From the IMG/VR virus record IMGVR_UViG_3300010885_031309: 64,000 nucleotides of DNA. One strand, 5' to 3'. Source of the stretch: a virus. Its lineage: Duplodnaviria > Caudoviricetes. This document shows, in pieces, positions 5,334-51,186 of the stretch (within the stretch, counting starts at the first letter, position 1; every line of letters begins with the position of its first letter). The position numbers and the translations under genes were made by a program. The notes beneath the pieces are model-generated. The model was not told the DNA's origin. It made no database searches and saw nothing but the letters and a program-made list of their open reading frames with translations.

Positions 5334-8300
5334 ATGGTCAATAAAGTAAGGACATTGGATTTTCTACCAGAGATATTCAGAACTGAAAGTAATCGTCAGT
5401 TTCTAAATGCTACTCTGGATGTGTTAACAGCACAACCCAACTTAAATAGAGTTCAGGGTTATATAGGAACCAAGTATGGCTACGGCGTCAATGCAGATGA
5501 TAAGTATGTGATAGAACCCACTGTCGGCAGATCAAATTATCAATTTGACCCCAGCGTTGTTTTCTTAAAACCAGATACACAACAGGCAACTGATTTTATT
5601 GATTATTCAGGAATTGTCAAAGCAATTAATAATTTTGGCGGTCAGACATACAACCATGACAGACTATTCAATAATGAATTTTACAGTTGGGACCCATTTA
5701 TTGACTATGACAAGATAGTAAATTTTTCGCAGTATTACTGGATTCCCTACGGACCCGATGCAGTTTTAATAACAAACAGAACTATTTTCCTAGAAGACAA
5801 GTATCTTCTTTCTAGTTCAAAAAATGAATTTAAGTTAACTGATAATGCGGGATCAAACCCAATTATTAATTTACTTCGCGGTGGAACATATACCTTTGAA
5901 TTGGAAACATCTCTAGCTGATGAGCAATTGTGGATTCAAGGAGTTCCTGGATTATCCGGATATGAAACTACAACAAATACTCGCGAGATACTTGGTGTCA
6001 CTGAAAATGGTACACGCACTATTACTTTTACTGTACCAGAGTCTGATGCACAGAGCGCGTTTAATATACCTGGAAACTTATCAGTTGATCTGGTAACTAC
6101 TAAACTCTACAGTGAAATTAATAATTCATCTATTACTACTATTGATGGAATCAGTGAGATAAACGGAAAAACACTGCTATTCTATAATAGTGAAAATAGA
6201 AAAGAATTCTATACTATACAAGTAAATAACAACACAGTTAGTTTAACTGCTGGTTCTACTATACCAGCAACACAAAAAATAATAGTTAATAGCGGTGTAA
6301 AATACGCTGGTCAAATATTTTACAGAACACAGACGGACACTATTGCACAGATCCCGTATCTTAGTGCAGTATTAAACAAATTATATTATCAGAGCAGTGT
6401 TGATGAAAAACGGGTTGGTCAAATCAACATATTTGAAACAAATGCCGCGGCATACATTGACGTTAATGACATTATTGGAAAGAAAACTTATACATCTTCC
6501 AATGGAGTAACATTTACCAATGGATTAAAAATCAAGTTTGACAATTCTGTTGTACCTGCTAGTTACGCTGATAAAGAATATTATGTTGACGGTGTTGGAA
6601 CATCAATTAAGCTGTTGGAAGTTTCAAAGTATGCTGTTACAGAACTAAGTTCTGAATTGGTATACAATTTATGGGATGATGTTACATATGACTTAAATCG
6701 TTGGGACAGTGACTTATATGCACCAATGACACCCGATTATATTACTATTAACAGAAACAGCAGAGATTTGAACGCATGGACTCGTAGCAACCGCTGGTTT
6801 CATCAGAGTGTTATAGATACTACAGTAGCAGCACTGGGTTATGTATCTGCCAAGGGTACAAATAAAGTTATCAGAGCGCAAAGACCAATCATTGAATTTC
6901 GTGGTAATTTACAACTGTTTGGGGGTGGAAATAACAGTGCGGGCGCAGTAACCTACTTTGATAATTCTGGATCATCACTAATCAATATTGTAGGTAAAAC
7001 ATCATATCAAATTGATGGTATTGAATTGTTGGATGGAGATCGCATAGTACTTGCTACTGATGATAATACTGAAGTAAGAAAAAATGTCTATGTAGTTGAA
7101 ATGATATCTACAAATCAGAACCAGTCTGCGGCGATTACTCTCAATCCAGTATTAGATTTAACAATAGCGGATCAAACTGAAATTAATGTACTGTTTGGAA
7201 GCGCACATCGCGGCACAACTTGGAAGTGGGATCTAATAACCAATTCTTGGGTTCAAACACAGAAAAAAATAAAAGTAAATCAACCTCCGCTATTTGATAT
7301 AGTAGATGACAATCTTAATAGTTTGAGTAATACAACATACTATGGTAGCACAAACTTTAAGGGATCCATGTTATTCAGCTATACTACTGGAGTCGGGATC
7401 AATGATTCCGTTCTTGGATTTCCAATATCATACAGTAGCTTAAATAATATCGGCGATATTAACTTTACAGTTAATTTTAATGACGACACATTCACATACT
7501 ATGAGGGTAATGTTGAAATAAACTTCAGTGTTAACATTGGATATGTAAAGCATAATATTACATCTGACACTAGTGAAAAATTAACTGGTTGGGTGCCAGC
7601 AACTGACACTAGTTTTCAATATCAAGTTTTGCAGTATGCTCTTAAATCAGGAGATACTACTATAGTATGTGACATTCCAGCAAAACTTACAACAAGTTGG
7701 AATCCAATACAAATATACTTAGAAGATACTGTATTAGATAGTGCTGATTATGCGGTAACAGTAGAAAATAATAAAACTATAATAAAGTTGTCCGCTGCTA
7801 TACAGACTACTAGTACAGCAACAGTGTTAATATATAGCGACTCGGTTTCAGAAAATGCATATTACACTGTGCCCAGTAATTTGCTAAGTAATCCATTTAA
7901 TACTAATATTACTAGCGTAGATGTTGGTGATATTAGAAATCAGTACAGAACTATATTCTCTAATGCACCTGAGGTAACTGGAGCGGTATTTGGCACAAAC
8001 AACATACATGACTTGGGTCAAGTATATCAATACGGTACCAGTATTATTCAAAGTAGTTCTAGTTTAGTATTACCTGGTATATTCTTACGCAAGAGTGATG
8101 CGTCATTATTTGATGCACTGCAATATTGCAATAATGAGTATTATAATTACAAGACGCTGTTAGTAGATATTGCTTATAAAAATGATTATAGTGTGTATCA
8201 AACACCCTATCAGATATTGGACAATATCATACATGAAATAGTAACTATCAAAAATAAGTCAACATCGTTTTTCTGGACTGACATGCTATACAGTGGAAGT

Positions 8301-11300
8301 CCATATGTCACTAACACATATAAGTTTGAAGTAGCTCCAACATCCAATGTTTTTTCTTTGTCCAGAATATATGATTTTTCATCAGCAAATTATAATGCAA
8401 TTGGAATTTATTTAACTAGAAAAGTCAGTGGACAGTCACGCACAACTCAATTAATAAGAAACATAGATTACATAGTTAGTTCTACTGGACCCACGATAGA
8501 AATTATTACATCATTGACTGATGGAGATGAGATTACTATCAATGAGTACAATCAGACATATGGAAGCTACTGTCCAAGTACTCCGTCTGCACTTGGACTA
8601 TACCCTTCGTTTGCACCAGAAATAATTGAAGATAAAACATATGGTGAGAATGCATATTTTATAGTCGGACATGATGGTAGTTATAATAAATTATATGGAA
8701 ATTATGTTAACGGCGCACTTGATGATTTTCGCGATATAGCATTATTTGAGTTTGAAAAAAGAATATACAATAATATAAAATCATCTGGAACTATACCACT
8801 TAGTGATGACACTGTTATTCCCGGGCAGTTTAGAAACACTGAGTACTCTCGCGATGAAATACTGAATATATACAGTACTAATTTTCTAAATTGGGTAGGA
8901 ACTAATAGACTTGATTTTAGAAAACAATACTACAATGTAGGTTCTTCATTTAGTTATAATTATAATCAATCATCTAATAGATTAACAAACACGGCTCTAG
9001 TAGAGGGATACTGGAGAGGAATATATCGTTGGTTATACGACACTGATCATCCACACGACAGACCATGGGAAATGTTAGGTTTAACATCAAAGCCAACTTG
9101 GTGGGATACTAGATACGGTCAAGCTCCGTATACTAGTGATAACTTGTACATGTGGAAGGATATTGCTGCTGGATATATATGGAATAGTGGCGATGCTTAT
9201 ACTAACAAGTCAAAAATTCGTCCAGAACTATTAAAAATACTGCCAGTAGACAGTCTAGGACAATTAAAATCTCCACTACATGTAGTAGTTGGTAATCATA
9301 ACAAATTAACTTTCAATAGAGATTGGATTGTTGGAGATCAGGCACCTACAGAAAACGCATACTTAAAATCAAGCTCTTGGCCATTTGATCTAGTAAGAAT
9401 TTTAGCATTAACCAAGCCAGCGCAATTCTTTAATTTATTTGCTGACTTGGATTCATATAAGTGGAACTCTGAGTTCAAACAATATCTGTATAATAATAGA
9501 TATCACTTGGATTGTCGCGAATTGAATATACATGGTTCTGGAACAGCCAAGCGTAGTTATATTAACTGGATTGTAGACTATATTAATGTTCGCGGTGTAA
9601 GCGGACACGAAGTTGTTACCAACTACTTGCGTAATATTGATGTAAGACTGACTTACAAAGCTGCTGGCTTTAGTTCTAAAAATTATCTGAAGTTTTATGT
9701 AGAGCGAGCTACGCCAGACAGCAAAAATACTGGATTTTTAATACCAGACGAAAGTTATTCTATACTGTTATACAACAGTGTTTGGGAAAGTAAAATAGAC
9801 TATAGTTCTATTATATTTCAACGAGTTAAAAATGGCTGGACAGTCTGGGGAAACAATCAGTCACAGCAGTACTTTAAGACAGCGGTGTCAAAAACAAATT
9901 CCAAGTACACTACTATTAATTTTGATTCAACGCAAGTAAAAATCGGCAATTCATGGTATGAAGACAGAGAACAAATAATATCGTATGGAACACTGTTTCA
10001 TAGTCAGCAAGCAATCAGTGAATTTATTAATAATTACGGACACTATTTAATCACACAGGGTGTTGAGTTTGATAACATTTCAAATGGAGTTTCATTAAAT
10101 TGGAACAGAATGATCCAAGAATTTCTTGCTTGGTCACAGCAAGAATGGGAATATGGTAGTACCATAGCTATAAATCCCAACGCAAGAAAGTTTACAGTTA
10201 ATAAACCTGGACTAGTAGTTCAGCCGATAACTATTCAGGACAAGAATTTTGTATTAAATCAGAACTTAATTCCAATACAAGCACAAAATTCTGCTGTGTA
10301 TCGCAATAATGAACAGTTTACAATAGAAATTCTGAATGAAGGCGACACTGTTGCTAATACTAATTTGCACTTGAATAGTATTGAACATGCTGTAGTTTTT
10401 GACAATAGCACTGTATTCGGTGATTTGATTTACAACTTAGTTACTGGTTTGCGACAGCAACGACTTCTATTGCGTGGATATAAAACTGCTGAATGGAGCG
10501 GTTATGTAGATGCTGCTGGATTTATTATTAATGAAGATAATATCAAAGAATGGGCGTCAAACATAAAGTATCCCAAAGGTTCAATTGTTACGCACAAAGG
10601 CTTATACTGGTCAGCTAATAAATTACTAGAGCCAACACTGACTTTTGTTCAATCAGATTGGAAGCAAATAGATTATGAAAATGTAAAAACTGGTTTGCTA
10701 AGTAACCCAAGTACTAATGCGTATCAAAGCTTGTATTACTATGACAGTTACAATGCAAACTTGAAACAAGATGAAGATCTATTGGCTTTTAGTTTGATAG
10801 GATATAGACCAAGAAACTATCTAGCATCTGCTGACTTAAGTGATATCACTCAAATAAATGTATTCAAAAATATTATAGCTGAAAAGGGAACAATAGCTCT
10901 AGCGGAATCTTTCAAAAATACAGTGTTTGATCAGGGTCCAATAGACTATGATATAAAAGAAATATGGGCTGTTAACACTAATACTTTTGGCAGCGTATTG
11001 AATAGTAATTTTGTTGAATTTAAGTTAAATCAATCTTTTCTTACTGGTAATCCTACATTGATTGAAATCAGTGATGAAACTGCAAGTTCGGAAGTACAAC
11101 AAACAGTACTACTCAATGAATTGACAAACTGGGGTCGTCCACCTACTAGTAAGAATTTCTTGCCAAAGCAAACCAAATATTCCGAGTACTTGCCCAGTGC
11201 TGGATATGTTGATGTCAGAGACACAGATTATCAAGTTTATGAATTTGAAGATTTGAATGATGAACCTTCAATCATTGACTCACTGAGTGTTAATAAGATA

Positions 11301-14300
11301 TTGTGGATAGCAAAATATAAATCTAGCTGGAATATTTATAGTGCAAGCCCATTAGGTGCAAATTGCATACAAGTTGACAACAATCAAAATGGAACACTAA
11401 CAATAACATTTGATAGACCGCATAACTTAAATGAAAATGAACATTTTGCAATTAATAATTTTGATCCGTTAGTCAACAAATTTTATACAGTTGATACTGT
11501 AAAGTCACTGACTTCTGTTGTAGTCAGCTATGATCTAGACAACACTGTTGTTAGATTATCTGGTTTTGGAATTGGATTTAAGTTAGTATCTAGGCGCTTT
11601 AATCAGGCAAGTGATGCAGTAGATGTAACAGCCCCATACTCAGAATATTCTACTAGAAAAATATGGGTAGATACTGATTCCGACGATAGATGGGCCGTTT
11701 ATGCATCAAGTATGGTATTCAATGAAACACAGTTGGAAATCCCGCAATCAACAGATGTTGGTTCTGCGGTCTCTTACAGTGAAGAAATAGGATATTTGTA
11801 TGCCGATGCAACGGAGTCTAGAGTATATTGTTACAACAACGATAATTTAAGTACTTTAACTGGTAATTCAAACTTTGGAAAAGTAGTTAAAACAGCCGCA
11901 GATAAACTTTTTATAGCATCAAACAGTAATGTTTATTACTATGACAGTAGATTAACACTAAATCAGATATTGCCAGAAGCTGATATCGCTGATATTGCAT
12001 GCGGAACAAACTCCAGATGGCTGTATTTGTTAAAAAAATCCACTAGTGAACTAGTAATTTATCACTTGGATAACAATAATAATTATGTTCTAGTAAGCAA
12101 TACTGGAAACTCAGTTGCTTACGGAAATGCCACGTCTATTGCATCAAGCATTGACGGACGCCGACTAATAGTTGGTGCTGCAACTGAGACTGTAAATGAA
12201 TTATCCAATGCAGGCGCAGTATATGTATACAGTCGTGAATTGCAAAGATTTATTTCAGATGGCATATCAACAGAATATAGATTACAATCTAGTGTACCAA
12301 ATAATATTGCTGATGTGTATCTAAATGGAATACTGACAACACAGTTTGTTGTTAGTAACAATTTAATCGTACTAAATTCTGCAGCCCCAACGGGTACTAT
12401 AGTAACTGTAGAACACGCAGATCTAACGCTACTACAAGTAATTCAAGCAGATGAGCCAAGAACAGGAGCCCAATTTGGAGCATCTGTTGACACAAATCGC
12501 TATGGGTCAAATTTTGTTGTTGGATGTCCATTTGATTTAACTACGATAAACACTGTTTCAAATATAGAAGGTTCAGTGTATGCATATGCAAACGAGGCTC
12601 AAAGATATGGTACAGTGACGCTCAAATCACCACTGGTCGTTGCAGATGATGTGATATTTTTTGACGGCTATCTAGTGAAATTTGAGTCGGATACAGACAA
12701 TATTAATAATATTACAGAACAGATTAATACTCAGACCCCAGTAAACATTGTTGCCACAGCAAATTCAAGTACTAATAGTATTACTATTACTGTGCGAGAC
12801 CGCACTGCTGAGACTCCATATGACATTATTGATGTTGTTGCTAATATAAATGTGGCCACTCGTCTGAAATTGAATCAATATACAAACACACAAAAAATAA
12901 CTGCCGTTAATATGCCGCAGAGAGCGCAGTTTGGTAGTGTTGTTCGCATGAATGAGAGAGATAGTTTAATAGTTTCTGCTCCCGTGACTGCCAGATTAAG
13001 CCCAACTGTGTTTGATAAGCCAAATAGCTGCGATGTACATGTGACAGCTTTTGATAACGGTGTTACTACTTTTATAGATAACTTCAATGAAGTTGGCATG
13101 ATATATCAATATGACTATTTGCCAGCAGAAAACGAAACGATTAGTAATTCTGGAAAATATGTTTTTGGACAATACATTACTAGTAGTAATACTAATTATG
13201 GTGCACAGTCTAAATTTGGACACTCAGTGGACTATCGCAATAATACTATAATAGTAGGTGCCCCAAATTACAGCAGTAATGGAAATGGATTTGTTTCTGT
13301 ATTCAGAAATCAGCAAACTAGTGATCCATGTCAAGTAATTAATCCAACTAGTTGGTATGTTTATAAAAAACCAATAGACAGTGTTGACATACATAAAATT
13401 AATAACATTAGCATATACGAAGAATTCAGTGAAAAAACTTTAGAATATTTGGATTATATAGATCCGCTACAGGGCAAACTATTAGGTGCAGTGTCTGTAA
13501 ATATTGATGTTATTAGTGAGTATGATCCCGCTGGATATGAAAGTAATGAATTACAGTGGGGACAAGAGCATGTAGGTAAAATATGGTTGAATACCAGAAA
13601 TTTGCGGATACTGAATTATAATCAGCAGGATGTAAATTATAATGCAAAAAATTGGGGAGCGGCATTTCCTGGAAGTTCTGCTGATGTATTTACTTGGATA
13701 GAAAGCAATGTGTCTCCGCTGAACTATAATGACAGTGGTTTCCCAATTACATATGATAAATTCGTAGTCAGAACTGTATTGAACAATGCTACGAATAGTC
13801 TAGCTGTAAAATACTATTTCTGGGTTAAAAATTACAGTAAGATACCCAACGGAAAAACTCTAAGCCCACTAGCACTTGCACAGTACATATTAAATCCTCA
13901 GAGTAGTGGAATTGCTTATCTGGCACCAATAACAACCAACACAGTTGCTTTGTATAATAGCTCTGAGTACATTAATGCGGCCAGTGGAATTTTACATATA
14001 GGATATGGAAATTCAGTTTATGTTGATAATAAGCACGATGTTTGGAGATTGATTCGTACTAATAGTGATGATTTCTTGTCTGGTTTCCCAACAGCTAAGA
14101 AACCAACTCCAACCGATTTATACTTAAAGTATTTGGATAGTTTTAGTGGAGCTGATGTTAATTATAATTTTGTTCCAGACACAAGACTTCCTCTAGCAGT
14201 CAGAAGCGGTGTCTCTTTCTCTCCAAGACAAACAATGTTTGTGGATAGACTAGTTGCATTGGAAAATTATATTACATATGTTAATAACATACTGACACAG

Positions 14301-17300
14301 TATCCAGTAACAGAAACTCGCTCGGATTTAACATTACTAAAATCTGTTGAACAATCATTCTGGAAAACAGTTAACTGGTGGGCATCTGGCTGGAGTGATC
14401 AAACAAAAGCGTCAATTGAAGTTGAAAGATATGCTGACTTGAATCGCATAGGCGAGTCAGAGCTTATTACTGGCACAACTGGATTAGTGTTGACAAGAGA
14501 CGAAGGTCTTGTAGTAAAGATAAAAGCAAATAGTCTTGGACTAAGTGAGTACTACACATACAGCAATTCACAGTGGAAAAGAATTGGATTAGAGCGTGGA
14601 ACAATTCAATTTTTATCTACACTGTGGACTACTAAGTATGGATGGGACTCTAGTAACTGGGATATAGATCTGTATGACAGAACAAATGCAGACGATATAA
14701 GAAAAGTAATACGGTGGATCAATGAAGTTTTATTCACAGGAGATTTAGTAGATGAACGAAACACTAGTTTAATGTTGATGTTTAACTATTCTCATGGAGA
14801 AATAGTAAATCAAAAGAATTACAATCAGTGGCTAACAAAAACAAGCTTGATTGATGTAAATCATAAGATACGTGGCTTATTGCCCTATAAAAAATATCAG
14901 CGTGATAACCAAGATTTCTTAAGTGGATACTTAAATGAAATTAAACCCTACCATGTGTATATCAAAAACTTTGTTTACACATATGATGGAATTGACAACT
15001 ATTCCGCGGAAGTAACTGACTTTGATTTACCAGCAGTTTATGATGATAAAACTAACACATTTAACAGTCCCAGAATAGTTTACACAGATATAAAAACAGA
15101 AAAAAATCAGTACGCGCCAACATCTGATATTTGGAAAAATAATAATTATAGTCAGTGGTATAAAAATTATGGACTATCATTGAAATCTGTAAAAAAGGAA
15201 AATGTACAGATTGCTACTTTGACTGCGCCGATAATGGTAAATTCACAGAGTATAAAATTGTCCAGTGTATATGGTCTACGAATCGGCGACAGTATTATCG
15301 TTAATAATGAAAAAATTCAATTCAACACTGTTGATAAAATAAATCGGACACTATCAAGTTTAGTGCGAGGCTTTGCAAGCACTGCTATTGATGAACACGA
15401 TGTTGGTGACAAAGTTTATGTTCCCTATACTCAATCATTAATCCTGGATGCGGGTCGCGGATATACTGAGATACCAAAAATAGATGTTATTTTAGATCCC
15501 GAACTTTATCCAAAACCAAGAAATGAAATATCAATGACTTCGGCTATTAGTGGCGGAAGTTTATCTTCAATATCAGTGTTAAATCCAGGAAATGGATATG
15601 CGATCTACCCCGATATTATTATATCTAGTAGCGACATATACCATGAATTTAATGGTCAAAATATTAATTCAACAGTCAACACTATACGAATAGAAAATCA
15701 TAAGTTTGAAACTGGAGACAGTGTAATATTCACCGTGACGGGCGATGAGGAAAATTATCGTCTAAAACGCAACGGTTTATATTATGTTCGTTCAATTGAC
15801 AACAATACTGTAGCATTGTATGACAACTATGTTTATGCATGTCAAGTTGACACTGCCATGGAAAAAGTAGAAACACTTGATACTCACCGAGTCAAGCTGA
15901 GTTCTACTTCTTCAACTATATTTGGAAAATTAACAGTCACTGCAAGAGCACAATTCTTGTTTGAGAGTTATCCAATAAGAACAATTAAAACTACTATTGC
16001 ATTTGACAGAGTAAGTTATACATCAAATAATGGTTGGGACGGATGGGCTTGGGAATTTAATTCTTGGGACAGTGAAGAAAGAGAAACTGCTGCATATAGA
16101 ATAGACAAATACTATAAGCCAACTGTCAATATGCCTGGTAAAGATTTGAAGCAATTAATGAATGGAGTTTCTTATCCAAACTTAATACTTCAAAGCAGCA
16201 CTTTTGCTGATAATTCTTCGGTTGATGTAAAAGTAGTTGCTCCGACGTTTGCTATGACGACCAATGGTGGTTCGGTTGATGGCGGAGATTTCTTAGACGG
16301 ATATGGTCCAGAAGAATTAGTAGCTGGTTACATCACGGACTCAATAAAAATTGTAGTAAAAAGTAATGACGGCTGTTTAATGCCAACTGCAACTGTTAGC
16401 TCTACCCGATTTATCACCAATGTATTATACACAGGAACGATTACTGTTTCTAATGCAACAGCCGCTTCAATTAGCGGTAAACCTAGTTGGCTATCAATTA
16501 CAGATGAAAAATACATCTCTGGAAAATACATCTTTACTTTAAGTGGAATTCCATCAACTACTGGTGAAATCATTGATGTGAATGTTGATGCCGAAAATGT
16601 ATGTAAATATAGTTCAACCTCTACTGTAGAAGATCTGGCTGTAATATCTACAACCGTAATATTACTACCATGCGTAGCTCCAACTGTTGGCAAGATAACT
16701 CCAAACTCATTCAGAGCCATGATTCCGTATGAAGGCACTCTAACAATTGAGAACGCAACTGATGCCGATATACTGTATGGATTGCCAACTGGAGTTTCAA
16801 TATTCAGTGAAGGTGCTGAAGGTACTGGATACAAGTTTGTATTAAAGGGAACACCAACTATCAGTAACGAGGAATATGAAATAAAAGTTAAAGCACAAAA
16901 CAGTACTGGATCATGCAGTGTTGCATATACTCCCGCGCCGTCAGTTTCTGCTGGAATTGGAACCGTAGCAGAAGCTCCTTCCTGTGATATGCCCGAGATT
17001 GGAGAACTATCAACTACTACAATTCAAGCATATGTTGTATACAATGCTACATTGACAATTACAAATGCCAAGACTCCTGTGATTATTGCTGGATTGCCAA
17101 GTACTATAATCGCAACACAGACACAATCTGGTTCAAATGTAGAGATTAGCTTCAGGGGTACTCCGTTAGTCAGTGAACAGATTAATTTGTCAGTCAAGGC
17201 ATCCAATACTGGAGAACAGTGTACTACATCAACAGCTACCAAACCATTTGAACTGTCAGTTAATCCAGCTATAGATTGTGCTGCACCCGTGGTTGGTCTA

Positions 17301-42240: not shown

Positions 42241-44784
42241 ATGAAAACTAATGAGATAACTTTAACAGAAGCAGCAATGAATCCAAGTGAGTTCGGGAAT
42301 GCTATTGCTCAGTCGGAGAATATGGGTGTACTTGTGGGATTTGAGTTTGAGTTTTGTTTTCCTAAAAATAAAATACAGGAACTTTTCTTATCTAAAGTTG
42401 GCGACTCAATTGATAAACAAGTCAGATATATACTTTCAATAAAATTAATTCGCGATAACGTAGCTAAATTAGACATAATATCTTTTTCCAAAATTATTAC
42501 TTCTGTAGATAAAAAACCCACACTTGAAGTGTATAAGAATTATATTGATAGTGTTTTATCTTCATTTATAAATGAGTACAATAAAACTACCGCAGAATTA
42601 TTGAAGCTGATAAATGGTGCAATTTATAATAAATACGATATAAACAATGTAGTATCATTGGGTGCAAAATTCAAATGGCTAAACCCAATACTTCAATTAG
42701 AGCATAGAAAACAAGAAATTCAATATATTGCATTGCTATCTGATATTATCAGATCAAATCTGCTTGATACTATTTTTGTGCAGAAAATTAATGCTAAAAA
42801 TTTAAATTTTAAAAATCAAGCAAGAAAATTAGCAGACGCGGCAAGATTTGCACTTTCATTACTGAAAACAGCGGACTTCATAACAGCGATAGAGCGTGAA
42901 TTTGGTAATGTCAGTGACGACGATTATGCAGACAATTATACGATTGATCATAAAGGGTTGCAATCAGAATTTCGTGTTACTAGTTTCTCTGAACTTATCA
43001 AAAACCCAGGATGGTATGAAATGGGCGCAGTAATGAAGATGTTGTGCGAAAAATATCTAAATACGAAACCAATATTGTTTAATTCCTACCATGAACGTAA
43101 AAAAGATAGTACACATTGGTATATAGAACCTGATGGTAGTTTACGACCAACTAGCGAAGAAATATCATTGGAGTTTGTTAGCCCTCCAATGAAGCCGCGT
43201 GATGCTATACAGGCACTGCAAATTTTTTATCAAATGGCCAGTGATTATGAATTCAGAACGTCCAAAGAAAGAAAAACTGGATGTCACATAAACGTAAGCA
43301 TTCCTGATAAAATAGATTTGATGAAGTTAGCACTATTTACTGGCGATCAATATATTCTACAGCAGTTTGGTCGCGAGAACAATTCATATGCTCGTAGTGT
43401 TTATGCTGAGCTAAAGTCAAAAAAAATTAGTTCTGCGCTATATTCTATTGACGATAAGTTCACTTTGAAAACTATTGCTGACATAGCAGAAAGGACCATG
43501 GATTCTCATTCTGCCAGTATAAGTGCAGAATCTGATAAAAAATTCATAAGCTTTCGTGGAGTAGGTAGTGATTACTTATCGCAATTTCAAAATGTGGTCA
43601 ACGCTAGTGCTAGATTCGTGCGATCAATGATGATAGCCAGTGATCCTACTCTTTATAGAGACGACTATCTCAAAAAACTTTATACATTATTGAAGAAATA
43701 TCCATCTACAACAACATCGGCGCAGCGTACACGAAAAAAAGTTGAACGAATTAGAACTCTGCGTAATACTATCGAGAGTGAAGGAATTCCAGTTCTAATA
43801 ATAGATGCTTATGTTAGAGATGGAGCTAAAAAGCTCAAAGACGCATTTACATCAGACAGTTCATTTTTATATAACCTAATTCCAGGTAATACCAAAACCA
43901 ATGTTGGATTTATTGTTCAAGTAGATAAAAAACAAGAGGTCATTGACAATTTGATATCTGCTATTAGTACTAATCAGAATGACGTTAAATATTATAATTC
44001 ACCATGGGACAAAGATGAGACAGTAACTGCCATAACAAATAGTGCTGATGGTGTTTATCGTGTAATTTTTTATCCAAAAACTATGCTTGGGTACAACCAA
44101 TTTAGGAAGAGACTACAAAAAGGTCCGGACAAATCACTAAATCATATACGAGTTCAGATGCCAGGATCCTCTATCATGCGATATTATGGGTGGAGACTAA
44201 ATTCATTTAGTATGATGCCTGGCAGTAGTGAATTTGCTACTAAGCTGACTGCTAATATCAAAGCAGAAATTGGAAATGTACTAGATGATCTGAAAAAAAC
44301 CAAAACCAGAAGGCGAAAGCTTCCGGAATCTGTGAGCAAAGCACCCATATACTATTTTGCGTATGGAATGCTAACTAGCGACAGAATAATGAATCAATAT
44401 GCTGCCAATAAAATTGGATCAGCAGCGTTGTCTGGATATAAATTTGAATTACTTGGACATGCCAATGTGATTAGAGATAATCAACATACATGTCAGGGTG
44501 TGTTGTGGCAAATTGACGCAGAAACATTACAAGAGTTGGATGCATTAGAAGGATATCCCGACTACTATACCAGAAAAAAGGTTCGCGTCGTTAGCAAAAA
44601 CAAAACATATAACGCCTGGGTATACACTATGACTGACTCTAGTAGAGCAAATTCATATGAACACGGACATCCATCTAATAATTATGTTAATACCATTGCT
44701 GCTGGGTATCGTAGTGCTGGAATGTCATTCAATCAATTGAACGCGGCAATAAGAGAACTAAACAGTAGATTTGAAGAACAATGA
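42241..44784 (+). CDS. putative amidoligase (COOH-NH2 ligase type) fused to C-terminal gamma-glutamylcyclotransferase
   Basis: VGFEFEF, IEPDGSL, LEFVSPP, TGCHINVS, SFRGVG. C-terminal YYFAYGML...LDALEGYPDYY (GGCT/AIG2). Confidence 0.85.
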   Translation: MKTNEITLTEAAMNPSEFGNAIAQSENMGVLVGFEFEFCFPKNKIQELFLSKVGDSIDKQVRYILSIKLIRDNVAKLDIISFSKIITSVDKKPTLEVYKNYIDSVLSSFINEYNKTTAELLKLINGAIYNKYDINNVVSLGAKFKWLNPILQLEHRKQEIQYIALLSDIIRSNLLDTIFVQKINAKNLNFKNQARKLADAARFALSLLKTADFITAIEREFGNVSDDDYADNYTIDHKGLQSEFRVTSFSELIKNPGWYEMGAVMKMLCEKYLNTKPILFNSYHERKKDSTHWYIEPDGSLRPTSEEISLEFVSPPMKPRDAIQALQIFYQMASDYEFRTSKERKTGCHINVSIPDKIDLMKLALFTGDQYILQQFGRENNSYARSVYAELKSKKISSALYSIDDKFTLKTIADIAERTMDSHSASISAESDKKFISFRGVGSDYLSQFQNVVNASARFVRSMMIASDPTLYRDDYLKKLYTLLKKYPSTTTSAQRTRKKVERIRTLRNTIESEGIPVLIIDAYVRDGAKKLKDAFTSDSSFLYNLIPGNTKTNVGFIVQVDKKQEVIDNLISAISTNQNDVKYYNSPWDKDETVTAITNSADGVYRVIFYPKTMLGYNQFRKRLQKGPDKSLNHIRVQMPGSSIMRYYGWRLNSFSMMPGSSEFATKLTANIKAEIGNVLDDLKKTKTRRRKLPESVSKAPIYYFAYGMLTSDRIMNQYAANKIGSAALSGYKFELLGHANVIRDNQHTCQGVLWQIDAETLQELDALEGYPDYYTRKKVRVVSKNKTYNAWVYTMTDSSRANSYEHGHPSNNYVNTIAAGYRSAGMSFNQLNAAIRELNSRFEEQ

Positions 44785-45557: not shown

Positions 45558-46472
45558 ATGAAGATCAGCGATTTTCGTATTCACAGCACTGACAAGTTAG
45601 ACGCCATGCTAGCCGAGTGTGTCAGCTTGATACTTGAGCATCAACAACAGGACAGTAAACATTGGGGCATGGTTGCCGCATGTGTATTGGATATGGACAA
45701 TCGCGTCGTGTATGGAGTTAATCATGCCATGCCAGATGGCACCCGCAAACACGCAGAACGAGTGGCTATTGACAACTACCGTGAACAATATGGATCAAAT
45801 CTGGAACATTGTATTGTAATAACTACACTGAGTCCGTGTAGCGAAGATATGGATGAACGACATGGTGATAGTTGCACCAATTTAATCAATGAAGTTGGAA
45901 TTCACAAAGTCTATTGTGGTTATAAAGATCCAAGTCAGCAACACAGTGATGCGTATTTACACAAGCACTTTCATGTTAAATCTACTCGCAATCCAAAATT
46001 GAATGAACTCTGTAAGAAACTGGCAGACACATTTTTAAAATCGGACGACGAGCAATTGACTGAAAATTTTCCTGGAAAAAATAAAAACAATATATACACT
46101 TTATTAGTAAACAGTGTTGGAGCTGGCCCATTTGATGGCGGATGCGTTATTTTTGCCAGAGCACTACAAATGATTTATGGTGGAGAGATAGTGGCATTGA
46201 TTGGATATGCACAGAGTTCTGTTGCATCCAAAAATCCAACTGCACAACATGCTGCACTGTTAGTTGACGGTCGTATGATAGATGCGGACGGAATCAAGTC
46301 ACAAGACGAGTTTGTTCGTAATTTTGAAAATAATGAATTAAAACATGTGGGTGGAAAAATAATCGGAATAAGACCACTGCACAATTCGGATCTATCAGAA
46401 GCACCTCGTGACGAACAACTATCGGCAAAAATATCCAAACTTTTAAAGTCCTCTAGTGCCAAAATAAGTTGA
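45558..46472 (+). CDS. zinc deaminase (RibD/cytidine deaminase-like) fused to a papain/transglutaminase-like Cys-His-Asp domain
   Basis: KHAERVA; TLSPC-x11-C; VYCGYKDP. Second domain DGGCVIFARAL...HAALLVDGRMIDADG. Confidence 0.75.
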   Translation: MKISDFRIHSTDKLDAMLAECVSLILEHQQQDSKHWGMVAACVLDMDNRVVYGVNHAMPDGTRKHAERVAIDNYREQYGSNLEHCIVITTLSPCSEDMDERHGDSCTNLINEVGIHKVYCGYKDPSQQHSDAYLHKHFHVKSTRNPKLNELCKKLADTFLKSDDEQLTENFPGKNKNNIYTLLVNSVGAGPFDGGCVIFARALQMIYGGEIVALIGYAQSSVASKNPTAQHAALLVDGRMIDADGIKSQDEFVRNFENNELKHVGGKIIGIRPLHNSDLSEAPRDEQLSAKISKLLKSSSAKIS

Positions 46473-46807: not shown

Positions 46808-47073
46808 TGAGCAGCAGCATTCAAGCCATTCACGACGACGAAGCTCAATGGGCCTACATTCGTCGTGTGGCAAACATTCCTGAAGTGTCATGGAGTGTTT
46901 ATAGCAGAGAGGCGACCGTTGCAAAACAGGGTTATACTGAACATGTTTATACCGGTAAACAGCTTAAGCTGTATGTCAAGCAACAGTGTGAATTGAATGA
47001 CTTGAAGCAGCGCCATTCCGCTGAATGGAAAGAACTTGCACTACTACTTGATTTGGAGAACAAATACGGATGA
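46807..47073 (+). CDS. hypothetical protein
   Basis: 88-aa ORF coupled to both neighbours. Confidence 0.6.
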   Translation: MSSSIQAIHDDEAQWAYIRRVANIPEVSWSVYSREATVAKQGYTEHVYTGKQLKLYVKQQCELNDLKQRHSAEWKELALLLDLENKYG

Positions 47074-49268
47074 GTTATGTTGATGCTATTTTTGATCGCG
47101 AACGAGATACTATTCATGTAGTAGAGCGGTCGCACAACGGTCAGCGACTGTATCAACAGTATCCGGCTAACTATGTTTTTTATTATGATGATCCCAAAGG
47201 AAAGTTTCGTAATCTAAATCACGAGCCAGTAAGTCGCTTTAGTACCCGTAAGCGCGGTGAGTTCATAAAAGAACTTAAGATACACAGTGGAAAACGCAAA
47301 TATGAAAGTGATTTGAATCCAGTATTTCGTTGTTTGGCTGATAACTATTTGGATGCCGAACCTCCGAAACTGCACACTGTATTCTTTGACATTGAAACCG
47401 GCTTCAATCCAGATCGCGGGTTCGCACCAATCACTGATCCATTCAATCCAGTGACAGCAATCTCACTGTATTTGGATTGGCTACAGCAATTGGTTACACT
47501 GTGTATTCCTCCGCGACACATGTCATCTGAAACAGCGCAAGAGATAGCATCTCAATTTGAAAACACATTTGTGTTTGACAATGAAGTAGACATGTTCAAT
47601 GTGTTCTTTGACTTGATAGAAGATGCTGATGCTCTTAGTGGCTGGAATAGCAGTGGATACGATATTCCCTACATGGTTAATCGTGTCACGCGAGTTATGA
47701 GCAAAGATGATACGCGAAGATTTTGTTTGTTAAATCAGTTACCAAAGCTACGCAAGTATATTATGTTTGATCAGGAACAGGAAACATATGATTTAAGTGG
47801 CCGAATTCATATGGACTACTTGGAGTTGTATAAGAAATACAATTACGAAAGTCGTCATAGCTACAAGCTGGACTTTATTGGAGAAATGGAAGTTGGCGAG
47901 AAAAAGGTTCAATACGAGGGAACATTGGATCAGTTGTATAACAAGGATTGGAAAAAATTCTTAGAATACAACCGCCAAGACACCTTGTTGTTGTTTAAGA
48001 TCCATGATAAACTAAAGTTCTTGGATCTTGCCAACAGTATTGCTCATCAGAACACAGTGCTATTACAAACCGTAATGGGCAGTGTAGTAATGATTGAGCA
48101 AGCAATTATTAATGAAGCACATGCTCGTGGATTAGTAGTACCAGATAAAAGGAAAATTAATGAAGATACAGAACCAACAGCAGCCGGTGCCTATGTTGCT
48201 ACGCCCAAAAGGGGCATGCACGAGTGGATCGCGGCGGTTGACATCAACAGTCTCTACCCATCGGCTATCCGCGCTCTTAACATGGCACCGGAAACCATCG
48301 TTGGACAACTCAGACCCACTCTTACAGACAAATACATCGCAGACAAATTAGCCACTGGATTAGAATTCGCGCATGCTTGGGAAGGTTTGTTTGGAACACT
48401 AGAGTACTCTAGTGTAATCAACCAAGAGCGTGGAACAATGATTACCATAGATTGGGAGCGTGGTGGTAGCGAAACTGCCAGTGCGGCCGAAATCTGGAAG
48501 TTAATCTTTGACAGCAATCAACCATGGATGTTAAGTGCTAATGGTACTATATTCACTTACGAGCGCGAGGGTATTATTCCTGGATTGCTTACTAAGTGGT
48601 ACACTGAGCGTAAAGAGATTCAAAAGCAACTTAAAGAAGCAAAGAACGAAGAAGAGCGACAGTTTTATGACAAGCGACAACTGGTAAGAAAGATCCTCTT
48701 AAATTCAGCCTACGGAGCACTGCTTAACATTCACTGCCGGTTCTATGATATCAGAATTGGACAAAGCACTACTCTGTGTGGGCGTCAAATCGTAAAACAT
48801 ATGGGCTCTCATTTAAATGAGCAGATTACTGGGAATTACGATCATAATGGCGAAGCTATTATATACGGCGACAGCGTAACTGGAGACACAATTATTAGAA
48901 CAAGTGATGGTGATATGTCTATAGCTGATTTATTTGATCGGTGTATTGAACATGTTAAAGTTGGTGAAAAAGAATATGGAGTATGGAATGAAACTAAAGT
49001 ATTAGGATTCAATTCGGAATATATGGAAAAAATTGCTGCGCCACTAAACTGCGTAATGAGACATAAAACAAAAAAGAAGTTGTATAAAATTACTACTGCT
49101 AACGGAAAAACAGTAACTGTCACTGAAGATCATAGTGTAATGATTGATCGTGATGGATTTTTGATTGAATGTAAACCAACTGAAATTCTAGAAAATGATT
49201 TAATTATTACACTTTCATCAAAAAATTTCTGGAAACAGAACGGCGGCAGAGGTGTGGAAAAAAGATAG
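47070..49268 (+). CDS. polB: family B DNA polymerase, N-terminal part, fused to split-intein N half
   Basis: Exo motifs FFDIET, SGWNSSGYDIPY, YNRQD. Motif A AVDINSLYPS, motif B KILLNSAYG. Ends IIYGD|SVTGDT. Confidence 0.95.
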   Translation: MSYVDAIFDRERDTIHVVERSHNGQRLYQQYPANYVFYYDDPKGKFRNLNHEPVSRFSTRKRGEFIKELKIHSGKRKYESDLNPVFRCLADNYLDAEPPKLHTVFFDIETGFNPDRGFAPITDPFNPVTAISLYLDWLQQLVTLCIPPRHMSSETAQEIASQFENTFVFDNEVDMFNVFFDLIEDADALSGWNSSGYDIPYMVNRVTRVMSKDDTRRFCLLNQLPKLRKYIMFDQEQETYDLSGRIHMDYLELYKKYNYESRHSYKLDFIGEMEVGEKKVQYEGTLDQLYNKDWKKFLEYNRQDTLLLFKIHDKLKFLDLANSIAHQNTVLLQTVMGSVVMIEQAIINEAHARGLVVPDKRKINEDTEPTAAGAYVATPKRGMHEWIAAVDINSLYPSAIRALNMAPETIVGQLRPTLTDKYIADKLATGLEFAHAWEGLFGTLEYSSVINQERGTMITIDWERGGSETASAAEIWKLIFDSNQPWMLSANGTIFTYEREGIIPGLLTKWYTERKEIQKQLKEAKNEEERQFYDKRQLVRKILLNSAYGALLNIHCRFYDIRIGQSTTLCGRQIVKHMGSHLNEQITGNYDHNGEAIIYGDSVTGDTIIRTSDGDMSIADLFDRCIEHVKVGEKEYGVWNETKVLGFNSEYMEKIAAPLNCVMRHKTKKKLYKITTANGKTVTVTEDHSVMIDRDGFLIECKPTEILENDLIITLSSKNFWKQNGGRGVEKR
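48873..49214 (+). mobile_element. split intein N-half (Ser1, residues 602-715)
   Basis: Block A SVTGDTII; block B VTVTEDHSVMI; inserted after YGD in motif C. Confidence 0.9.
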
Positions 49269-49395
49269 ATTAAAGATTAAAACAGCAGAAAATTATGGAT
49301 TTAGAGTATTAGTTGTATGGGAATCGGATTTTAGAAAAGACAAGAACAAAACAATTGAAAAGGTGACAGAATGGATTGTGAATGGACAAAAGTAA
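49216..49395 (+). pseudogene. C-terminal relic of a Vsr-like homing endonuclease
   Basis: Frame +1 relative to polB, no start codon: HQKISGNRTAAEVWKKDRLKIKTAENYGFRVLVVWESDFRKDKNKTIEKVTEWIVNGQK*. Confidence 0.8.
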
Positions 49396-50390
49396 GTAAA
49401 ATAGAATGTTTAGGAGAAGTAGATGATTATGTATACGATATAAGTATAGAAGAACAGGATCCGTTCTTTTTTGCTAATGATATTTTAGTACATAACACCG
49501 ATAGCTGCTATTTCAGTGCATGGCCAACTTTGAGCAAGGATGAAAACTTCATGAAATCTTGGAACAAAGATGTGGCTGTTAATATCTATGATCAACTTGC
49601 AGAAAATACAAATCTCAGCTTTCCAGAATTTATGGAGCGAGCGTTTCATTGTCCGCGAAAGAGTGGAGCGATCATTAAAGCTGGACGAGAGCTAGTAGCA
49701 GATCGTGGTTTGTTTATTACAAAAAAGCGTTATGCCGTTAACATCTATGACAAAGAGGGAGACAGACTTGATTTGTACGATGAGAAGCGGGCAGCAAAAA
49801 AGGGTGTAATATCGGGCATGGGTAAAATCAAGGCAATGGGTCTTGATCTAAAACGCGCCGACACTCCCAAGTATATTCAGAATTTCTTGATGAATGTGTT
49901 GATTGATGTTCTTCGTGGACATGAACGACAAGCGATTGTTGATAAAATTGTTCAGTTCAAAACAGAATTAGAGAAGCAACCAAGTTGGACCATGGGAAGT
50001 CCCAAGGGCGTTAACAAGCTAACCTGGTATGGCGAACAGCAGGAAAAATCCGATAAAAAGATAAACATGCCCGGGCATGTTCGTGCTAGCTTAAATTGGA
50101 ATTATCTAAGAACACTCAATAACGATAATCACAGTCAAAAAATTGTAGATGGTATGAAAATAGTTGTGTGCAAGCTAAAAGACAATCTATTGGGAATGAC
50201 TAGCATAGCATATCCAACAGATGAATTGCGATTGCCACAGTGGTTCTTAGAATTGCCATTTGACGATAAAGACATGATTAATACATTGGTTGATGAAAAG
50301 ATTAATAATCTTATTGGAGTGTTAAATTGGAAAATTTCCAACGACATTAACATCAACAGTACATTTAACAGCTTGTTTACATTCAGTTAA
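49371..50390 (+). CDS. polB: split-intein C half (42 aa) fused to family B DNA polymerase C-terminal part
   Basis: VYDISI...FFANDILVHN|TDSCYF restores YGD-TDS. KKRYAVN, KAMGLDLKRADTP. Confidence 0.95.
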   Translation: MDCEWTKVSKIECLGEVDDYVYDISIEEQDPFFFANDILVHNTDSCYFSAWPTLSKDENFMKSWNKDVAVNIYDQLAENTNLSFPEFMERAFHCPRKSGAIIKAGRELVADRGLFITKKRYAVNIYDKEGDRLDLYDEKRAAKKGVISGMGKIKAMGLDLKRADTPKYIQNFLMNVLIDVLRGHERQAIVDKIVQFKTELEKQPSWTMGSPKGVNKLTWYGEQQEKSDKKINMPGHVRASLNWNYLRTLNNDNHSQKIVDGMKIVVCKLKDNLLGMTSIAYPTDELRLPQWFLELPFDDKDMINTLVDEKINNLIGVLNWKISNDININSTFNSLFTFS

Positions 50391-50457: not shown

Positions 50458-51186
50458 ATGCGTGACTATTTAGAAGATATTATTCAACATACTTGCAGTC
50501 TTGGAAATATTGATTTAATAAAGATTGTTGGCGATCAAAATGAAACTTCAATTCGGTCTTTGACCGAAGATCGTTTCGTAATATTGAACGGAAAATTCAA
50601 GAACCCAAATCAGCAATTTGCTGGTGTTTTTGGAATGCCAAATCTTCCAAAACTCAAGACTATTCTTGGTTTTGATGAGTATGATGACAGTGCAATCATT
50701 CAAATGACACATCAACAACAAAATGGAGTTAATGTTCCTGCTGCCATTCACTTTGAAACTAAAAGTGGTGACTTTGTTAATGATTATAGACTAATGGGTC
50801 AGACTATTGTAGAAGATAAAATTCGCGATGTAAAATTTCAGGGTGCTAGTTGGAATGTACAATTTGAACCAAAAGTCAGCAGCGTTATTCGGCTAAAAAA
50901 GCAATCTCAGGCCAACAGTGAAGAAACTCTGTTTACAGTTAAAACTGAGGGCGGACACTTGAAGATGTTCTTTGGTAACATGTCAACACACAGTGGAAAT
51001 TTCGTATTTGAAAGCAATGTAACAGGAGCTCTGCAACGAACTTGGCGCTGGCCAATTCGCCCATTTTTGGCAATCATGGATTTGTTGGGTGACAAGCAAG
51101 TGTACATTAGCGATCAGGGCGCTATGAGAATTACGGTTGATAGTGGACTAGTAGACTACGAATATTTGCTTCCTGCACAAACTTAA
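50458..51186 (+). CDS. probable DNA polymerase sliding clamp (gp45-like)
   Basis: 242 aa, alternating beta/alpha pattern, FGMPNLPKLKTIL; directly after polB. Confidence 0.65.
   Translation: MRDYLEDIIQHTCSLGNIDLIKIVGDQNETSIRSLTEDRFVILNGKFKNPNQQFAGVFGMPNLPKLKTILGFDEYDDSAIIQMTHQQQNGVNVPAAIHFETKSGDFVNDYRLMGQTIVEDKIRDVKFQGASWNVQFEPKVSSVIRLKKQSQANSEETLFTVKTEGGHLKMFFGNMSTHSGNFVFESNVTGALQRTWRWPIRPFLAIMDLLGDKQVYISDQGAMRITVDSGLVDYEYLLPAQT

Follow-up and report, generated by a model that had tools for sequence, protein, structure and literature searches.

The accessible part of Dassa et al. (2009, NAR 37:2560, PMC2677866) describes "fractured genes", in which a gene for a DNA-synthesis enzyme is broken by a split intein and a free-standing Vsr-like endonuclease gene sits at the split; that text predicts later loss of the endonuclease as step IV of its model and does not name PolB among the fractured enzymes, the word "PolB" itself being absent from the paper. 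I-Bth0305I belongs to this Vsr-like "EDxHD" family of homing endonucleases (PMC3239194). Split PolB inteins with such an endonuclease between their halves are already known, so that the locus described below is not new in kind: they have been annotated or published in Aeromonas T4-like phages (where trans-splicing was shown), in PA5oct/MIJ3 and in Tenacibaculum phages. Aes123 PolB1, a natural split intein, has been shown to trans-splice in vitro, with an efficiency of only ~30% because its IntN aggregates, and homology to it is thus no guarantee of good activity (PMC11923092). It is found in the T4-like Aeromonas salmonicida phages Aes123, Aes508 and AS-gz (JN377899; structure 9hth) and has been engineered as "CL" and "CLm"; the sequences of PDB 9hth and the Aes123 gp43B1 intein align residue for residue. 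The Pseudomonas jumbo phages MIJ3 and PA5oct (PMC6892783) likewise have two polB genes carrying IntN and IntC. A further group of inteins occupies the "pol-c" point (position III) in polymerase motif C, namely the Nanoarchaeum equitans Neq Pol split intein, the archaeal pol-c inteins and the mimivirus PolB intein, the last of which lies at YGD/TDS (slashes mark intein boundaries) and has Ser1, a terminal Asn and Thr+1 (PMC549080).

The locus analysed here lies in a 64,000-nucleotide stretch of DNA (the window; IMG/VR record IMGVR_UViG_3300010885_031309) from a freshwater phage that is uncultured and has affinities to jumbo phages, and all of its features are on the plus strand. Gene 1 (47070..49268) is a 732-aa open reading frame made up of PolB residues 1-601, a 114-aa IntN and a 17-aa tail. 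Its N-extein (47070..48872) holds the exonuclease domain and most of the polymerase domain (gene 1 matches Pfam DNA_pol_B and DNA_pol_B_exo1) and ends ...IIYGD, the closing Asp codon being 48870-48872. Gene 2 (49371..50390, 339 aa) is in the same frame and has its own ATG, with a Shine-Dalgarno sequence AAGGTG (49360..49365) 5 bases 5' of it; after IntC it encodes the C-extein (49497..50390, 297 aa plus stop), which begins at Thr+1 (TDSCYF...) and is collinear with the C-terminal part of the uninterrupted PolB of ~70 loci. Joining the exteins in silico gives ...IIYGDTDSCYF..., which matches the ~70 uninterrupted relatives and bears out the proposal, made in a preliminary description of this DNA, that the joined exteins restore YGDTDS. 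The N-extein is 90% identical to that of IMG/VR locus L004, the window's sister in an extein tree; the best cultured-phage match of the exteins is PA5oct PolB at 47% identity, and a megablast search of the locus against GenBank phages returned zero matches, so a close cultured relative is absent. The scan for promoter-like and terminator-like sites and the Rfam scan for RNAs found none between gene 1 and gene 2, which speaks against a group I intron or a separate transcription unit there but proves little; the two polB genes are adjacent and probably co-transcribed.

IntN (48873..49214, 114 aa) starts with Ser1 at 48873, directly after YGD, and contains block A (SVTGDT), the NX motif (MRH) and block B (VTEDHS) before its end, DLIITL. 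IntC (49371..49496, 42 aa) runs from MDCEW to ILVHN, with block F (DDYVYDISI) and block G (ILVHN) with its terminal Asn. The junction YGD/S...N/TDS is inside motif C at the pol-c site, and 156 intein residues sit between the two metal-binding aspartates of that motif; the intein is naturally split, since IntN and IntC are on separate genes with their own stop, or ribosome binding site and ATG. The nucleophile at position 1, block B, the NX motif (VMRHKTKK), block F, HN and Thr+1 are all invariant in eight clade members, which is the pattern of a class 1 intein, and the R-H "NX" motif is specific to Ser1 inteins (PMC10189870). By itself IntN matches Pfam Intein_splicing (PF14890) at 42.3 bits (cut-off 35.8), and IntC reaches 28.3 bits at model positions 117-155, below the cut-off because it corresponds to only the last quarter of the model (its last 39 positions). 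Among structures, IntN finds PDB 9hth, the Aes123-type PolB intein, with an E-value of 4.5e-15, and IntC finds PDB 8cpo/8cpn (PolB16 intein) at 6e-5 and 9hth at 0.1; the match of IntN to the archaeal pol-c intein PI-PkoII is weak (E 0.0013). No second copy of the intein or of the endonuclease discussed below was found within the 64-kb window. These observations confirm the anatomy given in the preliminary description, that is, a polymerase split into two genes by a Ser1/Thr+1 split intein in motif C, gene 1 ending with YGD/SVTGDT, TEDHS, IITL, a 114-aa IntN and a 17-aa tail, and gene 2 opening with a 42-aa IntC that ends VHN/TDS behind its own AAGGTG and ATG. Its grouping of the intein with those that have no Cys nucleophiles is correct for the nucleophile positions only, as IntN has three cysteines elsewhere, IntC two, and the C-extein one at +4.

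The resemblance to the mimivirus PolB intein that had been pointed out is real in insertion site and in Ser1, Asn and Thr+1. Sequence similarity of the window intein to the Neq Pol, mimivirus and archaeal pol-c inteins is weak or undetected, however, and their layouts differ: the Neq Pol halves are at separate genomic loci of an archaeon, whereas those of the window are adjacent, and the mimivirus intein and the archaeal pol-c inteins are each in one piece and include LAGLIDADG domains. The Aes123 intein is nearer. Both are natural splits at the endonuclease position of a phage family-B polymerase, start with Ser1 and lack a nucleophile Cys, with IntN parts that are ~38% identical and half lengths of 120 and 39 aa in Aes123 against 114 and 42 aa in the window, and the Vsr-like endonuclease gene between the Aes123 halves is the layout of the window's ancestral state. 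On the other hand, Aes123 retains a full 354-aa endonuclease where the window has a 56-codon stump, the two host polymerases are only distantly related, and the Aes123 intein is inserted two residues further on (YIDTD/S...HN/S, with Ser+1) than that of the window (YGD/S...HN/TDS, with Thr+1). PA5oct and PTm1 share this downstream position. MIJ3 and PA5oct, whose intein blocks are homologous to the window's, have the DTD/S register (Ser+1) and an intact 562-aa "Hef-like" endonuclease between the halves, and for them, as for the window, the evidence is bioinformatic. Judged by these alignments, the window intein is homologous to the Aes123 type and is not allelic to it in the strict sense. The preliminary description had asked for comparison with known PolB split inteins, and the match of IntN to the solved Aes123 PolB1 intein answers it; the novelty it gave the locus was overrated, because the arrangement belongs to a known and partly characterised family that includes Aes123 PolB1, MIJ3/PA5oct and, as a split intein, Neq Pol.

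If the intein works as its homologues suggest, gene 1 would make PolB(1-601)-IntN and gene 2 IntC-PolB(602-898), the two intein parts would associate into a class-1 Hint fold, and trans splicing by oxyester chemistry (N-O shift at Ser1, transesterification by Thr+1 and cyclisation of the terminal Asn) would join YGD to TDS, rebuilding catalytic motif C in an 898-aa polymerase. The predicted IntN-IntC complex scored 0.72 (0.71-0.74 in three runs; no control rose above 0.00). Of 78 solved complexes, 51 attain this mark, and so do 2 of 108 mismatched pairs; since like complexes have already been solved, this pass shows likeness to them and not binding of this particular copy. In the predicted interface, IntC residues 1-42 are in and the 17-aa tail of gene 1 is out. 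Intein dN is far below dS, with dN/dS of ~0.06-0.2 where dS could be measured (for L006 versus L011, 0.065 in IntN and 0 in IntC), although dS is saturated for most pairs, so that these ratios are rough and selection after the loss of the endonuclease is inseparable from earlier selection. We consider that splicing probably occurs, on the strength of homologues with IntN identities of only 36-38%, and that it would be required for replication. A non-splicing alternative is that the two polymerase pieces pair non-covalently, through contacts between the exteins or through the two intein parts, and work as a heterodimer. The complex prediction speaks to association and not to chemistry, and parallels exist in phages: PolB and NrdA can be split with no intein involved (PMC2677866), as in gp43A/gp43B of certain T4-like Aeromonas phages and in NrdA of phage Aeh1. 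L004 and Aes123, too, have an intein-less break further upstream in their polymerase genes. We regard this arrangement as improbable here: the break falls inside the six-residue catalytic YGD/TDS, with the whole intein between the metal-binding aspartates, the homologous Aes123 intein splices, and the splicing residues (Ser1, NX His, block B Thr and His, HN and Thr+1) are kept in all clade members under purifying selection, although dimerisation alone has no need of them.

The region between the intein halves holds the remains of an endonuclease gene in a third reading frame, which the preliminary description of this locus does not mention. In the IMG/VR loci L004, L006, L009, L011, L018 and L024 and in Klebsiella phage KP13-7, the YGD/S...VHN/TDS site and the 114- and 42-aa halves are as in the window, the endonuclease is of the same family as the window's remnant, and its stop overlaps the start of IntC; unlike the window, all of these have a complete endonuclease of 319-337 aa (319 aa in L004). 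L010 and, among named phages, PA5oct, Aes123 and PTm1 also have the split layout with an intact endonuclease, and the KP13-7 (Alcyoneusvirus) locus bears no intein annotation. L004 further differs from the window in an extra intein-less break in polB, due to a second endonuclease gene on the opposite strand. What is left in the window (49225..49395, frame +1 relative to polB) is the last 56 codons and the stop of a Vsr-like (EDxHD-family) homing endonuclease: a tblastn search with L004 endonuclease residues 265-319 finds 49228-49392 at 62% identity (E 2.7e-17), and alignment A1 places the stump at the C-terminus of 319-354-aa endonucleases, downstream of the missing IEFNGDYWH core. The stump has neither a start codon nor the EDxHD catalytic core (the IE.NGD.WH region). 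Its Pfam matches, to MTES_1575 and DUF559, are weak, as is the match of the full-length L004 endonuclease to Vsr structures (E ~0.01, residues 235-312). A dN/dS comparison of the stump covers 48 codons with dS near saturation, and most of that divergence is older than the deletion.

DNA homology between the window and L004 breaks at 49215 and restarts at 49272 (L004 10117), and the unmatched gap between the homologous blocks is 881 nt in L004 and 56 nt in the window. By this comparison, a deletion of ~830 nt removed most of the endonuclease gene, and the tail of gene 1 (SSKNFWKQNGGRGVEKR, 17 codons plus TAG 49266-49268; 49215..49268), where the IntN frame continues into the stump, reads as an out-of-frame translation of it. 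The preliminary description had called the tail frameshift-derived; it is out of frame, but the cause is this fusion of the IntN frame to the stump and not a simple frameshift. "FWKQ" in the tail was considered as an in-frame Vsr motif and ruled out, as homology to the endonuclease lies in frame +1, which the tail does not follow. The small ORF at 49252-49395 does not merit annotation as a gene. The IntN tails of relatives extend 2-4 residues past the core (DPSA, NT, VRV, IG or KR before the stop), so that the window's tail exceeds every one of them and could impair folding or association.

The shared frame of the two genes raises the question of whether an assembly or sequencing artefact, or recoding, hides one continuous intein-containing PolB (a mini-intein, or one with an endonuclease domain). 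A contiguous mini-intein does exist at this site: that of Salicola phage SCTP-2 PolB has the YGD/S...N/TDS site and a homologous splicing domain (37% IntN identity), but one 1089-aa ORF encodes the whole of it, and it has no endonuclease and has a penultimate Lys (...LLKN/TDS) in place of the window's His. In the window, five in-frame stops separate the genes (TAG 49266, TAA 49278, TAG 49302, TAG 49332 and TGA 49356; "several" in the preliminary description), a route through the stump frame needs two frameshifts, and in all close relatives, too, IntN and IntC are encoded apart, on genes that have a stop, ribosome binding site and start of their own. Logan contigs from two other studies, X2 (48891-49535) and X3 (49021-49355), are identical to the window across the junction with no indels listed; the preliminary description had asked for read mapping across 49200-49400, and such contigs, as distinct from raw reads, drop minor variants. 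The exact sequence of the deletion junction had zero matches in IMG/VR, and the window itself seems to be absent from the collection searched. The identical sequence thus occurs in three samples, each of a different study (2017 to 2022), and the locus is not an assembly error; of the explanations weighed here, an artefact or recoding is the least credible.

The abnormal tail and the clearly dead endonuclease could also mean that polB is a decaying pseudogene whose intein was damaged by the deletion, in a phage that uses another polymerase or in a defective lineage, and the sequence searched was the window only. Such decay is very unlikely in our view. The open reading frames are intact for the two exteins and the two intein halves alike, with all motifs in place, and the recurrence of an identical sequence in three studies indicates a replicating lineage. 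A C-terminal extension of IntN is compatible with splicing in the engineered construct GFP-NpuN-H6 (PMC11923092), and we infer that the 17-aa tail is tolerated. Another IMG/VR locus, L012, has undergone a like endonuclease loss and has an intact intein; its remnant is ~24 codons long, its own IntN tail (VRV) is also an out-of-frame read, and its loss was independent of that in the window. An (A/G)A(A/G)GG(T/C) equivalent of the window's AAGGTG, which lies inside the stump, precedes the IntC start in all relatives, endonuclease-less L012 included.

Intein-bearing alleles are scattered over the extein tree of 77 rows, with at least five changes of state. An intein-free allele, contig X4, differs from the window at 6 of 837 nt in the flanks and at 17 of 40 nt around the insertion site; the window's allele and an intein-free one ~99% identical to it thus co-occur in nature. 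The IntC parts of the window and L004 are 95% identical. Intein and exteins of these two have dS values saturated everywhere, which is uninformative on separate acquisition; between intein-plus and intein-minus flanking codons the sole trend, in a comparison that ignores shared ancestry, is GAT over GAC at the Asp after Thr+1.

Taken together, we estimate a probability of about 85% that this is a naturally split, trans-splicing PolB intein derived from a "fractured gene" by deletion of the endonuclease. A free-standing homing endonuclease gene of the Vsr-like (EDxHD) family would have invaded a pol-c mini-intein and split it; the later ~830-nt deletion would then have taken ~263 of the 319 endonuclease codons together with the start of that gene, the spacer and the stop codon of IntN. 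It would have kept the endonuclease 3' end, in which the ribosome binding site lies and with which the IntC gene overlaps at its start. In Dassa's terms, the ancestral state of the locus fits the definition of a fractured gene; the enzyme gene is still broken by a split intein at one locus, but only a stump remains between the halves in place of the middle gene, making the window a derivative of a fractured gene and not a complete one. With its endonuclease reduced to the 3' end, the element would no longer be able to home, while the host would still depend on the split intein. It is somewhat favoured, though by a small measure, that the window and L012 are natural snapshots of recurrent, independent endonuclease loss, a step that the fractured-gene model only postulated; each deletion would then have begun at the IntN stop codon and spared the endonuclease 3' end because that end had become the ribosome binding site and start region of IntC.

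New here are the 56-codon stump, the ~830-nt deletion, the origin of the tail, the independent loss in L012 and the co-occurring intein-free allele. The locus adds a natural split intein, predicted to splice, with Ser1/Thr+1 nucleophiles at the classical pol-c site and with non-catalytic cysteines remaining; split inteins of this Ser1/Thr+1 kind are uncommon, and there is a demand for them as protein-ligation tools that can do without reducing agents. Annotators of such phages should treat PolB as one spliced product. One phage group now presents a graded series of no intein, live endonuclease, 56-codon stump and ~24-codon stump, with the contiguous mini-intein as a more distant member, and this series could test how a fractured gene becomes a stable split-intein gene and how much C-terminal baggage an IntN tolerates. 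If the snapshot reading is true, a selfish invader would leave behind an immobile, host-essential split intein, a route to inteins of the DnaE type and Neq type, and the ~99% identical intein-free alleles would make it possible to follow the homing cycle in a natural phage population.

The PolB of the window is encoded on the + strand by two genes that share a reading frame, gene 1 (47070..49268; 732 aa) and gene 2 (49371..50390; 339 aa), as defined by the ORF list and the sequence, with five in-frame stops between them and an AAGGTG five bases upstream of the gene 2 ATG. Gene 1 reads ...IIYGD, then SVTGDTIIRT ... VTEDHSVMIDRDGFLIECKPTEILENDLIITL (the N-terminal intein half, IntN) and then SSKNFWKQNGGRGVEKR* (a tail), and gene 2 opens with MDCEWTKVSKIECLGEVDDYVYDISIEEQDPFFFANDILVHN (the C-terminal half, IntC) followed by TDSCYF...; the lengths computed by script are 601 aa for the N-extein, 114 aa for IntN, 17 aa for the tail, 42 aa for IntC and 297 aa for the C-extein. 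Gene 1 has Pfam matches to DNA_pol_B_exo1 and DNA_pol_B, and the Intein_splicing model matches both IntN (42.3 bits; cut-off 35.8) and gene 2 residues 1–42 (model positions 117–155). The preliminary description had PolB split into two genes by an intein at YGD/TDS, and every detail of this is borne out by the ORFs, sequence, stops, ribosome-binding site and Pfam matches; the split intein is real and was read correctly from the sequence alone. It is not cysteine-free, as IntN has three cysteines, IntC two and the extein one at +4. Upstream of polB lie genes for an 847-aa protein whose C-terminal domain resembles gamma-glutamyl cyclotransferase and for a dCMP-deaminase-like protein (42241–44781 and 45558–46469), and downstream is a gene in a PHROG of unknown function (50458–51183); a single 4705-aa ORF at 5334–19451 (+) fits a jumbo-phage origin.

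Is the interrupted sequence an assembly artefact? The split stretch is present in three metagenome runs from three studies, one of which (X1) may be the source sample. Logan contigs from the other two runs, X2 (48891–49535) and X3 (49021–49355), are identical to the window, with no indels listed, over IntN, the deletion junction and the stump discussed below, and the IntC start; assembly into contigs could conceal minor variants that raw reads would show. Between the two genes there is no match to an Rfam family (group I introns would be included), and no promoter-like or terminator-like site was found.

The spacer carries the remains of a third gene. In the third frame of the + strand an ORF at 49252..49395, extendable upstream to ~49225, reads ISGNRTAAEVWKKDRLKIKTAENYGFRVLVVWESDFRKDKNKTIEKVTEWIVNGQK* and has weak Pfam matches to the PD-(D/E)xK-type nuclease families MTES_1575 and DUF559. 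Among the relatives found, IMG/VR locus L004 is the closest (N-extein identity 90%); a complete 319-aa gene occupies this position there and ends ...GPGNKTAQEIWDRDAKKIQTARNLGFRVLTVWESDYIKNKQKIIEEVIEWMLNGQK*, with a stop that overlaps the start of IntC just as the stop of the stump does in the window. The sole tblastn match of the L004 protein to the window is 49228–49392, which corresponds to its residues 265–319 (62% identity, E 2.7e-17). In a protein alignment (A1) with the 319–354-aa endonucleases encoded by L004, L006, Klebsiella phage KP13-7 and Aeromonas phage Aes123, the stump pairs with their final 56 residues alone, and the conserved IE.NGD(Y/F)(W/Y)H core is absent from it. The Aes123 protein is annotated "putative VSR endonuclease", and that of L004 weakly matches E. 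coli Vsr structures (E about 0.01); the gene behind the stump belonged to the Vsr-like "EDxHD" family, which was defined by Dassa et al. 2009 (PMC2677866) and in the I-Bth0305I study (PMC3239194). DNA homology to L004 stops at window position 49215 (L004 9235) and restarts at 49272 (L004 10117), which leaves a gap of 56 nt in the window versus 881 nt in L004. A deletion of ~830 nt has therefore eliminated the stop codon of IntN, the spacer, and the start and ~263 codons of the endonuclease gene. The IntN of relatives stops 2–4 residues past the IntN core, and the 17-aa tail of the window is the IntN frame continued out of frame into the stump. The tail had been described as frameshift-derived; it is indeed read out of frame, but comparison with L004 places its origin in a deletion joining IntN to the stump.

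In about 70 of the 80 IMG/VR loci polB is uninterrupted, its N-extein continuing directly into the C-extein, and seven (L004, L006, L009, L010, L011, L018 and L024) carry the split intein with an intact endonuclease. KP13-7 likewise has the YGD/TDS site of the window and an intact 337-aa endonuclease, and homologues were also found in phages of the Campylobacter CP21 group and in Lak megaphages. Another IMG/VR locus, L012 (region 4230–4310), has no endonuclease gene between the end of IntN (4263) and the start of IntC (4300); the tail VRV* on its IntN is read out of frame like that of the window, and another frame of the spacer reads ...VWSEYKQNKELIIQEACKWLL, the last ~24 endonuclease codons. 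This loss is a second, independent deletion, with a right-hand end point that differs from the window's; both deletions leave the endonuclease 3′ end that bears the IntC ribosome-binding site. The polB of L004 (L004:6001–9251) is in three pieces, with a second, inteinless break between residues ~526 and ~532 made by an endonuclease gene (289 aa, Vsr-like/NUMOD3) that is encoded in the opposite direction at 7612..8481; the piece downstream of it opens with an extra ~50-aa segment absent from the window, and the layout of Aes123 gp43A/gp43B1 matches this break.

Several features suggest that the intein halves may still splice in trans, which would yield an 898-aa PolB. Ser1, the R-H "NX" motif (which PMC10189870 reports to be particular to Ser1 inteins), block B TEDH, block F DDYVYD, the terminal HN and Thr+1 are invariant in all eight clade members compared (the window, L004, L006, L009, L011, L012, L018 and L024). 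dN is far below dS in both halves, with omega values of 0.065 for IntN and 0 for IntC in the pair L006 and L011, where dS is unsaturated, and 0.06–0.2 in the remaining computable pairs. IntN matches PDB 9hth (E 4.5e-15), the matched chain of which is, by sequence, the Aes123 gp43B1 intein; this intein occurs naturally in T4-like Aeromonas phages, is split, lacks cysteine and trans-splices in vitro (PMC11923092). For IntC the matches are to structures of the PolB16 intein (8cpo and 8cpn; E 6e-5). The predicted complex of gene 1 residues 592–732 and gene 2 residues 1–55 scored 0.72 versus 0.00 for the best control (of 78 solved complexes 51 attain this mark, and of 108 mismatched pairs 2 do), a value that reflects likeness rather than proof of binding because like complexes have already been solved. 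The predicted interface includes IntN and IntC 1–42, and tail residues 718–732 would lie outside it.

In a tree of concatenated exteins (77 rows, three GenBank rows being on very long branches) the window and L004 are sisters (support 100), and intein-bearing alleles are scattered, with at least five state changes. A contig from a 2022 metagenome (X4; higher depth) carries an intein-free allele that is about 99% identical to the window in its flanks (6 differences over 837 positions), versus 17 differences in the 40 nt at the insertion site (48845–48872 and 49497–49508; HTGEAVIYGDTDSI vs HNGEAIIYGDTDSC). This sharply bounded patch is a candidate co-conversion, homing or recombination tract. 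For the Asp after Thr+1 (49500–49502), 8 of 10 intein-bearing alleles use the codon GAT and most intein-free ones use GAC, by raw counts over 80 loci that ignore shared ancestry; the endonuclease target or co-conversion may be the cause.

The YGD/TDS site corresponds to the classical "pol-c" position, at which archaeal PolB inteins, the mimivirus intein and the Nanoarchaeum equitans split intein also lie (PMC549080), and the likeness to the mimivirus PolB intein that was noted at the outset holds, since site and Ser1/Asn/Thr+1 residues (PMC549080) are common to both. Salicola phage SCTP-2 (L002:4885–5373) uses the window's site but has a contiguous mini-intein, the end of which (...NILLKN/TDS) has Lys as its penultimate residue, where His is usual. 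The homologous split inteins of PA5oct/MIJ3, Aes123 and Tenacibaculum phage PTm1, whose endonucleases are intact, lie two residues downstream (DTD/S). There are thus two motif C registers six bases apart, YGD/S...HN/TDS (window 48870–48875 / 49494–49502) in the window clade, KP13-7 and SCTP-2 and DTD/S...HN/S in Aes123, PA5oct and PTm1, and it looks as though the intein "slid" or was re-inserted by two codons. The window's split intein is less novel than was first proposed and its arrangement is already known, because pol-c is a known site, split PolB inteins are annotated in GenBank entries for Aeromonas and Tenacibaculum phages ("intein-containing split DNA polymerase precursor"), and Dassa et al. 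2009 (PMC2677866) describe the fractured-gene arrangement and predict later endonuclease loss. It stands apart as a phage split intein that occupies the pol-c register with Thr+1, and by its endonuclease stump and the length of the tail on IntN.
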